A DNA stretch of 64,000 bases. Source: Acutalibacteraceae bacterium. Its GTDB lineage: Bacteria; Bacillota; Clostridia; Oscillospirales; Acutalibacteraceae. The notes beneath the pieces are model-generated. The model ran no database searches, was not told the origin of the DNA, and worked only from the letters and a program-made list of their open reading frames with translations. Each line of letters opens with the position of its first letter. Position 1 is the first letter of the stretch. A program made the position numbers and the translations under genes. Shown one piece after another: positions 1,710 through 6,545 of the stretch. The stretch is taken from assembly GCA_045544035.1 (NCBI GenBank), contig JAZPYE010000002.1:7898-71897 (forward strand), read 5' to 3'.

Positions 1710-1952
1710 TTACATCTGGTCGTGGAAGGTGCGGGATATAACCTCATCCTGCTGTTCCTTTGTAAGTTTAATAAAGTTAACGGCATAGCCGCTTACTCTA
1801 ACGGTTAATTGCGGATATTTTTCGGGGTGAGCCTGTGCATCAAGCAGGGTCTCCTTTGAAAAAACATTAACATTCAGGTGATGTCCACCCTGCTTAACAT
1901 AACCGTCAAGTAAAGAAACAAGATTATCAATTTGATTTTCGGTCGCTTTCAT
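1710..1952 (-). CDS. Stand-alone glycyl-radical domain protein (GrcA/YfiD-like), equivalent to the C-terminal ~80 aa of PFL
   Basis: 80 aa: ...[55 protein letters not shown]..., containing the RVSGYAV glycyl-radical motif. AAGGAG (1959-1964, minus strand) sits 6 nt upstream of the ATG. Confidence 0.85.
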
Positions 1953-1973
1953 TATTTTCTCCTTATTATAAAA

Positions 1974-4079
1974 CTATTCTTCAGTGTCAAGACCTTCAAA
2001 AAGCGTAGGCGACATACAAGCACCGTTTGCGCAGTCAAAGTCAACCTCAATATCTCCCGCAAAAATGCGGTCATCCTTACCGAGAGCTCCAGGGACGATT
2101 GAGAAGGTGTTTGAAATGCCATCCTGAGCATCGACAAAGGGCAGCTTTGCAACCGATGCAAGGGAAGCAACGGCACCGTTTGTGTCTCTACGGTGCATGG
2201 GGTTAGCACCGGGGGCGAATGCCTCGCCTTTTTTACGACCGTCAGGTGTGGCGCCTGTATTTTTACCATAAACAACATTCGAGGTAATGGTTAAAATCGA
2301 GGTGGTGGGAACACTGTTTCTGTAGGTGTGATTTTTTCTGATATGCTCCATAAATCTATGAACGATTTGATAGGCAATGGAGTCAACGCGGTCATCATCG
2401 TTGCCGTATTTCGGGAAATCACCCTCAACCTCATAGTCAACAACAATTCCCTGCTCGTTTCTAATTGTCTTAACCTTGGCATATTTAATAGCAGACAGTG
2501 AGTCAGCCACAACAGAAAGGCCTGCAATGCCCGTTGCAAACCAGCGGGTTACCTCCTTATCGTGAAGGGCCATCTGGATTTTTTCGTAGCAATACTTATC
2601 GTGCATATAATGAATGATATTAAGGGTATGCACATAAACCTTGGCAAGCCACTGCATCATTTGGTCATAGGCCTTCATAACCTCATCGTAATCAAGATAC
2701 TCGCTGGTTATGGGGCGATATTCAGGGGCAATTTGCTTGCCCGAAATTTCATCAATACCGCCGTTAATTGCATAAAGCAGACACTTTGCAAGGTTGGCTC
2801 TGGCGCCGAAGAACTGCATTTCCTTGCCCAGTTTCATTGAAGAAACACAGCAGGCGATGGCATAATCATCACCGTGGTGGAAACGCATTAAATCATCGTT
2901 TTCATACTGAACCGATGAGGTTTCAATGGAAATTCTGGCGCAGTAACGCTTAAAGTTTTCAGGCAGCCTTGTGGACCACAAAACGGTGAGATTGGGTTCG
3001 GGCGCGGCGCCTAAATTCTCAAGGGTATGAAGATAACGATAGGTCATCTTTGTAACCATATGTCGGCCATCAATGGCAACACCGGCAAGGGATTCGGTAA
3101 CCCACTGGGGGTCGCCTGAAAATAGAGAGTTATATTCAGGGGTTCTGGCAAATTTAATAAGGCGCAGCTTCATAATAAACTGGTCAACCAGCTCCTGTAT
3201 TTCGCTTTCGGTGTAGACCCCGTTTTTAAGGTCGCGCTCGGAATAAATATCGATAAACGTTGATGTGCGACCAAGGGACATTGCGGCGCCGTTTTGCTCC
3301 TTAACAGCAGCCAAATAGCCAAAATAAAGCCACTGAATTGCCTCTTTGGTATCCTTTGCAGGGCGGGAAATATCATAGCCATAGCTTGCGGCCATTTTCT
3401 TTAAATCCTCAAGGGCTCTGATTTGTTCAGATAGCTCCTCACGGGCGCGGATAATTTCCTCATACATTGCAGAACGAGTGGTTTCCTTCTGCTCTGCCTT
3501 GTCCTCAATAAGGCGGTCAACACCATAAAGAGCAACACGGCGGTAGTCACCGATAATACGGCCACGGCCGTAGGCATCGGGAAGCCCTGTTATAATGTGA
3601 CTTGAACGGCAGGCGCGCATTTCGGGGGTGTAAACATCAAAAACACCTGCGTTGTGGGTTTTTCTATGAACGGTAAAGAATTCCTTAACCTCAGGGTCAA
3701 GGGTGTAGCCGTTATCGGAACAGGCCTTTTCGGCCATGCGAATTCCACCATAAGGCATCAAGGCACGCTTAAAAGGCTTGTCGGTCTGGAAGCCGACAAT
3801 CTTTTCCTTTTTCCTATCGAGATAGCCGGGGCCGTGAGAAACAATGGTGGAAATCACCTTGGTGTCCATATCAAGAACACCGCCTGCTTCCCTTTCCTGC
3901 CGATTTAGCTCGGTCACCTGCTCCCACAAATCCATCGTATCCTCTGTGGGGCCCACAAGAAAGCTTTCATCCCCATCATAGGGCATAAAATTGTGCTTAA
4001 TAAAGCTTCTAACATTTATTTCTTTAGTCCAAGTACCCTCTTCAAAGCCTTGCCATTCTTCGAACATTTTAAATGTCAA
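1974..4079 (-). CDS. pflB: Formate C-acetyltransferase (pyruvate formate-lyase) catalytic core without the glycyl-radical domain
   Basis: 701 aa collinear with PflB, including the active-site Cys pair (IACCVSSMK) and ...[12 protein letters not shown]. It then diverges into a 31-aa tail and stops at TAG 1974-1976. Confidence 0.9.
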
Positions 4080-4423
4080 TTTAAAATCCTTCTTTCACTT
4101 TTTTGAACATCTTTTCTACATTTAAAAGTATAACATAAAACACGCTGTAAGTATAGTAGAAAAACCTTGCAAAAATTTAAAATAAATATTTGAAAATTTA
4201 GCAAATATATCAAAAATTAGTAATGATTATCGTTTTTATTTTAACAAACTTTTTATTTTTTCTCAAATTTAATTTAAGAAAAAAAGAAATGCCAAATAAA
4301 ACGAAAAAAAATTAGATTTTTTATAAAAACAAACATTTATTTTAAAGTATTATTTTCTTTACTATATTATATAACAAATCAAAAGAATTTTCAAGAGCAA
4401 CCGGCCGCTTACTAAAGCGTATA

Positions 4424-4644: not shown

Positions 4645-5067
4645 TTATCGAAAAGCATCAATACTCAAATCCGTTTTTATTATGTATTTTCTGTCGTAAT
4701 TATCATAAAGAATGAATTCTACTTTATCGTTAGGATTACAAATTGCAGACAAATTTTGTTTACAATAACTTTTATAAATATCTTGCTCAACGATATCTAT
4801 ATTTTTCGTTGTTGCTGGCGGCAAAGTTAATTCTTTTAAACCATCAAAGTATTCGACGTGAAGTACATGTGTGTCTATACAGCAAATCATTCTTGTTATT
4901 ACAACTGTTCTAAGCGAATTGTTAGATAGGTAAATTTTGAAATTTGGTAACATTTCAAAATAGGTCTGTATTTTTCTTGTTTTATCCCAAAGATTCAACC
5001 AAATACCAACAATACCAACAATTGTTGCTAACGTAGTTCCAATTGCAGAAAGCGCGTTCCAATTCAT
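4645..5067 (-). CDS. Hypothetical protein with an N-terminal transmembrane helix and no recognisable family
   Basis: 140 aa. The N-terminus MNWNALSAIGTTLATIVGIVGIWLNLW is a single hydrophobic helix. Its start overlaps the upstream stop (ATGA, 5064-5067). Very AT-rich codon usage. Confidence 0.6.
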   Translation of the reverse strand: MNWNALSAIGTTLATIVGIVGIWLNLWDKTRKIQTYFEMLPNFKIYLSNNSLRTVVITRMICCIDTHVLHVEYFDGLKELTLPPATTKNIDIVEQDIYKSYCKQNLSAICNPNDKVEFILYDNYDRKYIIKTDLSIDAFR

Positions 5068-6545
5068 AAACGATCACCTCTATAATCTTCCAATGCTTTT
5101 ACTTCTTTACTATTTTTTCTACAAATAGGACAACTACTTCCTTTATTTCTATTCTTGATAGTTGCCTGCCATTCGTGACCATTGTCACATTTCCACCATA
5201 CTTTTTTACTGCTGTTAGCTGTAAAGTTTTCTGGCTTTAATTCGCCATTTTTTTCATAATTCCAATCTTTCGCCAGAGTAGGATTAACCGTTCGTAAATC
5301 ATTTTCACCTTTAATAGCAAGCCTGCCAGAACAATATGGGCACCCCTTACCGTTATTTCTACTATATATCGCCGCCTGCCATTCGTGACCATTGTCACAT
5401 TTCCACCATACTTTTTTTCCACTATTCGTTGTAACATGTTCCGGTTTTAAGTTGCCGTTTTTTTCAGAGTTCCATTCTTTTGCTAGCTCTAAATTAGAAA
5501 ACAAAAGAGAATTTTCTTTTTCTGTGTATTCTCGTAAGTTTTCTATGAAAATTGCATCTCTTTCAAGGTTAACATCAACGCTCGATCCAATTATCTCGCT
5601 TAAAATTTCTTTAAGTATTTTGGGCAAATCCTTTTGTCCTTTTTGAACAATATAATCTTTGGAACTATTATTTAACGGAGGCAAGCCTTCTCTTATTCTA
5701 TACAGTTTAATCCCATCTTTTTTACACTTTTGATTTTTTTCTAAATCTTTTTTTGTTTTGTTTTTATGCCAAAGGTATCCATCATATTCAATGGCGATTC
5801 TTTTTGATGGAATATAAATATCTAATTCGTATCCGTTCTCTTTGTATAGATGAATCACCTCTAAATCGTATTTTTTAAGATAATACAAAATCGCATACTC
5901 GGGAAGAGAAGTTTTTCGTTCGGAATTACAAATAGGGCACCCACATCCCGTGTTTCTATGGAGAATCGTTGCTTGCCATTCGTGACCTTTGTTACATTTC
6001 CACCATACTTTTTTGTTGCAATTAGGCAATATATCTGTAGGTGTTAATCCATTGTTTTTTTCATAATTCCATTCTTGTGCTAAGGTTGGATTAACCGTTT
6101 GTAAGTCGTTTTCCCCCTTAACAGCAAATCGACCAGCACAGTAAGGGCATCCGTTTCCGTTGTACCTACTTTGTATTATTGCTTGCCATTCATGACCTTT
6201 ACTACATTTCCACCAGACTTTCTTTCCACTACTAGGCAATACATCCTTGGGCGTTAATCCATTGTTTTTTTCATAATTCCATTCTTGTGCTAAAGTTGGA
6301 TTAACTGTTTGTAAATCATTATAGCCTTTAATAACTAATATTCCTGCGCAATATGGGCATCCTTTACCACTATGTCTATTATATATAGTCGTTTCCCATT
6401 CGTGTCCTTTATTGCACTTCCACCATACTTTTTTATTACTTCCAAGGGTTAATTGAGCGGGGTCAAAATTTAATTCGTTATTCTTTCCCCAATTCCATTC
6501 TGCCATCAGTTCGGCATTATCAATTACGTATTTCTTTTCTGCCAT
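5064..6545 (-). CDS. Multi-zinc-ribbon (DUF4379-like treble-clef repeats) protein with a central Vsr/DUF559-like PD-(D/E)xK nuclease domain
   Basis: 493 aa. Five repeats of W-N-x-EKN...KKVWWKC-x-KGHEW-x11-GCP(Y/I)C occupy aa ~12-75, 85-145, 155-207, 354-412 and 424-477. The core at aa ~213-286 is YELDIYIPSKRIAIEYDGYLWH...D..K...GIKLYRIRE. RBS GAGGTG lies 9 nt upstream of the ATG. Confidence 0.75.
   Translation of the reverse strand: MAEKKYVIDNAELMAEWNWGKNNELNFDPAQLTLGSNKKVWWKCNKGHEWETTIYNRHSGKGCPYCAGILVIKGYNDLQTVNPTLAQEWNYEKNNGLTPKDVLPSSGKKVWWKCSKGHEWQAIIQSRYNGNGCPYCAGRFAVKGENDLQTVNPTLAQEWNYEKNNGLTPTDILPNCNKKVWWKCNKGHEWQATILHRNTGCGCPICNSERKTSLPEYAILYYLKKYDLEVIHLYKENGYELDIYIPSKRIAIEYDGYLWHKNKTKKDLEKNQKCKKDGIKLYRIREGLPPLNNSSKDYIVQKGQKDLPKILKEILSEIIGSSVDVNLERDAIFIENLREYTEKENSLLFSNLELAKEWNSEKNGNLKPEHVTTNSGKKVWWKCDNGHEWQAAIYSRNNGKGCPYCSGRLAIKGENDLRTVNPTLAKDWNYEKNGELKPENFTANSSKKVWWKCDNGHEWQATIKNRNKGSSCPICRKNSKEVKALEDYRGDRL

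Follow-up and report, generated by a model that had tools for sequence, protein, structure and literature searches.

Can a pyruvate formate-lyase (PFL) do without a glycyl-radical domain of its own and take that domain from a second protein encoded next door? PFL is the most widespread glycyl radical enzyme (GRE) and catalyses a central step of anaerobic fermentation, and it has a weak point, which is that oxygen cleaves its chain at the radical glycine. The question is raised by a stretch of 64,000 nucleotides (hereafter the window) from an Acutalibacteraceae bacterium (GenBank assembly GCA_045544035.1, contig JAZPYE010000002.1, positions 7,898 to 71,897 of the forward strand), in which the PFL gene stops short and a small neighbouring gene, grcA3, encodes the part that is missing. 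The answer that we find supported is that the primary PFL here is made from two gene products, a catalytic core and a glycyl-radical domain encoded apart from it, because the split is conserved, there is no second PFL-type radical domain in the genome, the parts are under purifying selection and the two pieces model into the canonical fold. An initial annotation, made from the letters of the sequence, had already suggested that the enzyme is built as two pieces, and the suggestion is borne out on each of these counts. We consider it very probable that the locus encodes an obligately two-subunit PFL and its activase in a single operon, whose parts are as follows, numbered by position in the window.

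1974–4079, minus strand: PFL catalytic core without a radical domain, 701 amino acids; the range takes in the stop codon TAG (1976–1974)
2847–2852, minus strand: codons of the catalytic Cys410-Cys411 in IACCVSSM, equivalent to E. coli C418/C419, as read from the sequence
2037–2069, minus strand: proximal tail motif of the core, residues 671–681, common to all tail-bearing split cores
1977–2036, minus strand: Cys module fused to the C-terminus of the core, residues 682–701, placed by motif alignment across relatives
1953–1973, minus strand: intergenic spacer of 21 nucleotides, containing the Shine-Dalgarno sequence AAGGAG (1964–1959)
1710–1952, minus strand: GrcA3-type glycyl-radical subunit, 80 amino acids, with the Gly55 codon at 1790–1788 in RVSGYAV; matches NF038360
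961–1704, minus strand: pflA, the PFL-activating radical S-adenosylmethionine enzyme, 247 amino acids, GTG start; TIGR02493, cluster motif CPMRCLYCHN
4366–4394, minus strand: promoter-like site TTGAAA-17-TATAAT upstream of the operon, called from its match to 11 of 12 consensus positions
936–962, both strands: strong bidirectional intrinsic terminator at the end of the operon, with a 12-bp stem and T-runs on either side

The reading frames lie where the initial annotation had placed them. A 701-residue PFL frame with 31 extra residues at its end runs to the TAG, and exactly 21 nucleotides, or seven codons, further on and without a change of frame comes the 80-residue open reading frame (ORF), with its own ATG (1952–1950) and an AAGGAG six nucleotides ahead of it. 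On the ORF reading, the core starts at a TTG at 4079, with an alternative ATG at 4067, four codons downstream, and pflA begins 5 nucleotides past the grcA3 stop. A terminator scan found nothing terminator-like in the gap from the stop of the core (1974) to the start of the small ORF (1952), and its weak matches (1793–1779 on the minus strand, 1731–1752 and 1832–1848 on the plus strand) all fall inside the small ORF.

What are these three proteins? In Pfam, the core matches PFL-like (PF02901, E 2.6e-220) followed by positions 1–50 of the 106 in Gly_radical, and the small ORF picks up at position 49 and runs to 106; the PFL is thus cut cleanly, at a domain boundary. A sequence search of the PDB agrees, aligning core residues 4–673 with residues 6–681 of E. 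coli PFL, small-ORF residues 8–79 with residues 682–758 of the same protein, and small-ORF residues 21–78 with residues 68–125 of YfiD (6owr). The core scores 1103.3 bits against the PFL equivalog TIGR01255 (formate C-acetyltransferase; profile positions 2–664 of 744), above the cut-off of 994.2 although the last 80 profile positions are missing. Its adjacent catalytic cysteines, C410 and C411, are kept, and both are invariant across 62 split cores, while the RVSGY that a PFL carries on the same polypeptide as its catalytic barrel sits instead on the 80-residue ORF, where RVSGYAV makes up residues 52–58 of a chain reading ...NLVSLLDGY...HLNVNV...RVSGYAVNF.... That this ORF is the remainder of PFL, its glycyl-radical domain, had been claimed at the outset, and Pfam, NCBIfam and the PDB alignments all say the same. 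Its NCBIfam match is to NF038360 (autonomous glycyl radical cofactor GrcA3; 167.5 bits, cut-off 158, model positions 2–78 of 78), and it scores below the cut-offs for GrcA (TIGR04365, 92.5 versus 170 bits) and GrcA2 (NF008341, 104.3 versus 145 bits). NCBI annotation of near-identical proteins from metagenome-assembled genomes (MAGs) already uses the name GrcA3, and the small protein is thus catalogued as a curated family, but with the label of a repair factor; we found no paper in the full-text literature that uses the name. The third protein is PflA (TIGR02493, 290.3 bits, cut-off 231.75), with the CxxxCxxC motif in the form C-PMR-C-LY-C.

How far does the arrangement reach? We scanned public genomes, one per species, with the core as query and analysed the 80 closest PFL loci, of which 74 are split at the same domain boundary; the comparison of orthologous loci that the initial annotation had recommended thus comes out on the side of a conserved split. 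The closest split relatives are Acutalibacteraceae, at 85–89% identity, and others occur in Oscillospiraceae and Lachnospiraceae (including Blautia and Dorea), in Actinomycetota (Collinsella and Atopobiaceae) and in two Spirochaetota MAGs, three phyla in total, with the cultured Sellimonas caecigallum JCM 35759, Catonella morbi ATCC 51271 and Collinsella strains among the carriers and the same split architecture in more than 70 independent assemblies. Within the genus, four of six genomes, the source genome counted, have the split locus with the same tail. The remaining two have no pfl operon at all. Lookups of two distant exact 80-mers led to the same cassette (a core of 698–700 residues, an 80-residue ORF and PflA) between unrelated flanks. 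The source genome itself (1.37 Mb in 21 contigs, 95% complete) holds one PFL-like core and one PFL-type radical domain and no second of either, and a second intact pflB, named beforehand as a finding that would point to a pseudogene, did not turn up in it. Across 17 loci, with the method of Nei and Gojobori and synonymous sites near saturation (proportion of synonymous differences about 0.75), the median ratio of nonsynonymous to synonymous substitution (dN/dS) comes to 0.03 in the small subunit, 0.05 in the core and 0.16 in the tail, where it covers the 30 codons that directly follow ALGK, namely those for DD and for tail residues 671–698. Core, radical subunit and tail are all maintained by purifying selection, and the split PFL is a real, widespread and little-described variant of the enzyme. 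One Acutalibacteraceae MAG also has a weak GRE-like fragment of 27% identity (locus L024, 2501–2956) directly upstream of its split core; a 1-kb insertion in that core gene was considered and rejected, since a weak match to a separate, paralogous GRE gene upstream had been joined to it, and the core is intact.

How, then, might the pieces work together? Modelled by AlphaFold2 as a single chain, with the TAG read as glutamine, they superpose on full-length E. coli PFL with a template modelling (TM) score of 0.88–0.91 over about 794 columns, as against a query-normalised TM score of 0.73 on the PFL large domain alone, and the model is consistent with the small subunit lying in the canonical radical-domain slot. 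When the core is modelled by itself, confidence falls in the region of the catalytic Cys-Cys loop, where the block means drop from about 77–82 to about 51–61. On our account, the core has the substrate sites, the catalytic Cys-Cys pair and the barrel of ten strands, ending at the equivalent of E. coli residue 678–681 or thereabouts, and GrcA3 contributes everything beyond: a helix, beta-10 as the final strand of the barrel, the finger loop bearing Gly55 and the helix at the C-terminus. Most likely, the canonical fold is completed when GrcA3 docks into the core; PflA would then take a hydrogen from Gly55, and the radical would be handed to the core cysteines for pyruvate cleavage. Since the oxygen cut falls at the radical glycine, damage would be confined to the cheap subunit of 9 kDa, and this could be replaced with no need to make the 79-kDa core anew. 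The weakest point of the proposal concerns the acidic and apparently disordered Cys tail of the core, which may aid the docking, activation or exchange of the small subunit.

The closest man-made counterpart is the engineered E. coli pair of tPFL(1–695) and truncYfiD(61–127), in which a PFL body that has neither beta-10 nor the Gly loop is likewise complemented in trans by a minimal radical domain, and which once activated reaches a kcat of 204 s-1, equal to that of the wild type (Andorfer et al. 2021, PMC8683613). The natural cut lies about 17 residues upstream of the engineered one, so that the natural small subunit includes the helix, and the natural core has a conserved extra tail, unlike tPFL. 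Two recent PDB entries titled ‘Formate acetyltransferase’, 38la (687 residues) and 38lb (739 residues), are also cores without a radical domain, and they score 1147 and 1110 bits against the core in the window, where E. coli PFL scores 960. The chain of 38lb runs past ALGK into a tail (GKSGNVMFGECD...), and that of 38la ends in ...SLGKED and is of the tail-less type; neither the 80-residue nor a 37-residue tail query matched any chain of either entry. Both were released after 2026-04-08, being absent from the structure library of that date, and we found no paper that cites them, so that structural work on such cores evidently exists, unpublished as far as we could find. In the multi-subunit GREs benzylsuccinate synthase and 4-hydroxyphenylacetate decarboxylase, it is the large catalytic subunit that keeps the radical glycine, the small subunits being accessory; the split PFL, unlike both, has its radical glycine on the small subunit. 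That GREs can consist of several polypeptides is itself established, as alpha-beta-gamma in the former and as a large and a small subunit in the latter (PMC13450708). The current literature, the same 2026 review included, has E. coli YfiD/GrcA as its sole answer to oxygen cleavage, and the review lists the existence of other spare-part systems as open; for a naturally split PFL we found no paper in the full-text literature, whose coverage leaves subscription-only papers outside.

What of the tail? The initial annotation called it non-conserved, and in this it was mistaken. Directly after ALGK(D/E)D, all tail-bearing split cores have a proximal motif, x(V/I)F.GD(I/L)(E/D)(V/L)(D/E)L, which is present in two-piece, three-piece and Collinsella-type cores and missing from intact PFLs. 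In the clade of the window this motif is followed by the Cys module, which begins D-C-x4-C-x and has acidic residues besides. The DNA after the conserved PFL body had been read as an insertion that provides a stop, a ribosome-binding site and a start, and the TAG, the AAGGAG and the ATG are indeed all there, but the tail is a conserved module and not mere filler. In three-gene relatives, the core ends soon after the proximal motif, and an ORF of 65–75 residues stands between the core and the radical-domain gene. The C-terminus of this middle protein carries the same Cys module as the fused tails: in an anchored alignment, the motif C-x(0-9)-C-xx-P-T-L-x-E-G-L-D is found in 28 of 39 fused tails and in 26 of 28 free middle proteins. 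Since the module is fused to the core here and free in the three-gene relatives, we read the window as a condensed, two-gene version of a three-gene system. The N-terminus of the middle protein shares homology with the radical subunit over the latter's first helix and strand (local hhalign, probability 96%, E 3.9e-9, 31 columns), so that a free protein of about 70 residues bearing the Cys module also copies the radical subunit's docking helix and strand; only when a global hhalign alignment is forced does the Cys motif fall opposite the Gly loop, and then with no confidence. Searched against Pfam, NCBIfam and the PDB, the middle protein belongs to no family and gives a weak N-terminal match to the GrcA3 model, and the tail has no meaningful match among solved structures. 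The middle ORF is unannotated in locus L035 (4579–4830) and in the equivalent gaps of L036, L045, L047, L049, L055, L056, L059, L063, L067, L080, L115 and L119. In L055 and L059, the spacer between middle ORF and radical-domain gene has tandem duplications of about 60–70 nucleotides (in L055, for example, GGCTCTGGT.GAGCCGCAGCGGAACTATGAAT occurs twice).

In its modelled form, the tail behaves like a disordered linear motif, and by analogy with the recognition elements inferred for cPFL and YfiD our best guess is that it may have a role in docking or activation. That it could plug the empty slot of the core intramolecularly gets no support from the models, in which the tail of the core alone has a predicted local distance difference test (pLDDT) score no better than in the fused chain, though with so shallow an alignment the models do not refute the idea either. 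Several points weigh against our account of a two-subunit enzyme with a working tail. AlphaFold2 gives the tail no confident fold, with pLDDT 24–36 when the small subunit is included and 27–34 when it is not, and since it has no structure either way a docking role is without structural support. Some splits have no tail and those of the Collinsella type have a short one, which means that a split PFL can do without the Cys module. In the engineered tPFL/truncYfiD pair, activation is poor and binding so weak that it escapes measurement (PMC8683613), and PFL function in trans is therefore not automatic. Finally, we found in the literature no experiment on these split PFL proteins.

Where did the split come from, and need it have a purpose? 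A quick IQ-TREE tree of 104 cores (668 columns, tails excluded) places the window in a clade of 21 two-gene Cys-tail forms (Shimodaira–Hasegawa-like approximate likelihood ratio support 100), and all tail-bearing split forms fall in one clade of 90 rows (98), along with seven intact PFLs of weakly resolved placement. Two-gene and three-gene forms are interspersed, and the well-supported branches require at least four to five switches between them. Three tail-less splits, L113 (G312), L114 (G433) and L120 (G192), have cores that end after ...SLGK(D/E)D (in L113, ...SLGKS) and a radical-domain gene of 77–78 residues some 40–90 nucleotides past the core; they group with intact PFLs of the ‘SITP’ type (L101, L103) in a separate clade (100), and hence the same boundary has been broken at least twice. 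In the family of the window, intact PFLs that are only distantly related (G007, G014) occur alongside a three-gene form (G008) and the two-gene form of this locus, a mixture which implies that the operon moves or is replaced horizontally; from its distribution (G003, G004, G007, G008, G014) it looks like an accessory unit exchanged in this way.

This history gives room to the most serious competing explanation, which is that the split is real but neutral, a fission at a permissive boundary after which the chains assemble once and permanently, the radical subunit never being exchanged or repaired. A boundary that broke at least twice independently, once without any tail, is what such an explanation would welcome, as is the interspersion of intact and split forms in the tree, weak as the resolution there is. 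It is also in keeping with neutral fission that no PflA feature tracks with the Cys module, though the search for PflA residues that do so had 8 loci without the module to compare and thus low power. What neutral fission does not predict is accessory sequence conserved under purifying selection, be it the tail here or the protein of about 70 residues in relatives, nor does it predict a spread over three phyla, and we would give it a genuine but minority chance.

A second explanation would make GrcA3 a spare part, like GrcA/YfiD, for an intact PFL or some other GRE encoded elsewhere, with the truncated neighbour as a relic. The family name, ‘autonomous glycyl radical cofactor’, and the model label, rad_fix_GrcA3, do imply a repair factor, and the genome is of course 95% and not 100% complete. 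The spare parts known from the E. coli system of PflB and GrcA/YfiD (structures 1H16, 2PFL and 6OWR) and from phage T4 (Y06I) are likewise small RVSGY proteins, homologues of the radical domain at the C-terminus of PFL, which PflA activates and which complete a PFL body in trans. E. coli PflB, however, owns its radical domain, and GrcA/YfiD is a back-up encoded elsewhere, whereas the core in the window has no such domain and GrcA3 is adjacent to it, in the same operon, and the only one in the genome. GrcA3 further lacks the disordered N-terminus of 60 residues found in YfiD and has an extra helix ahead of beta-10. The genomic evidence, in contrast to the name, points to a regular subunit. In an even sample of 400 genomes from the class, 242 carry a PFL-type radical domain, and in at least 22 of these it lies in a short frame of 80–106 residues; each of the short-form genomes has exactly one PFL-type radical domain and no intact PFL alongside, and within the sample the small radical-domain genes were seen only beside cores without that domain. 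A spare part is expected to coexist with a PFL that owns its radical domain, and since such a PFL is absent both here and in each of at least 19 other sampled carriers, GrcA3 is, as far as gene content can tell, the regular radical-bearing subunit. A core under such strong constraint (dN/dS 0.05), with its catalytic Cys-Cys pair kept, makes a poor relic, and we regard the spare-part explanation as very unlikely.

Might the TAG simply be read through or recoded, to yield one fused PFL of about 789 residues, with the shared frame as the whole point? The initial annotation left this open, together with an error, as its alternative, and a single stop does part two in-frame ORFs in the window and in loci L006, L018, L022 and L033. 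The relatives speak against it, however: spacers in the clade of the window range from an overlap up to 109 nucleotides, about two-thirds of the loci have ORFs that overlap or lie in different frames, and spacer lengths are a multiple of three in about one-third, as expected by chance, so that the shared frame in the window, correctly described, is incidental. Core stops in the clade are mostly TAA, the small ORFs have their own ATG and nearly all a Shine-Dalgarno sequence, and no fused form of about 780 residues occurs among the best 120 tail-bearing proteins from a collection of 5.8 billion. Read-through is in our view exceedingly improbable, and that this one genome has a recent pseudogene, or was wrongly sequenced or assembled, is a negligible prospect when the same architecture and tail recur within the genus in four genomes and beyond it in dozens of independent assemblies from other families and phyla, and when the selection statistics exclude decay.

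Outside the operon, we note that upstream of it the window encodes a 493-residue ORF (5064–6545, minus strand) with at least six repeats resembling KKVWWKC.KGHEW....R..G.GCPYC, which are zinc-ribbon-like and flank an unrelated central segment.

Returning to the two-subunit PFL, how far might one go? Taken jointly, the observations could mean that PFLs without a radical domain form a large and undescribed ‘cartridge’ class of GREs with a consumable radical subunit of 80 residues, whose docking or exchange would be controlled by the conserved, disordered and acidic Cys module. With oxygen present, the Cys pair could then serve as a redox or oxygen switch, keeping the radical from being installed or the subunit from docking. 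As a whole this is speculative and we think it rather unlikely. More immediately, the split matters for annotation in abundant gut taxa (Acutalibacteraceae, Lachnospiraceae, Blautia, Dorea and Collinsella), where the cores are labelled plainly as ‘formate C-acetyltransferase’ and the small subunit as a repair factor. If it is true that there is a natural PFL whose cheap radical subunit is always separate, then the radical domain would be a true module, and the split enzymes would offer both a natural system in which to study the access of the activase to the glycine and the docking of the domain, two matters that a fused enzyme makes difficult to approach, and a template from which other GREs could be engineered to have replaceable radical domains.

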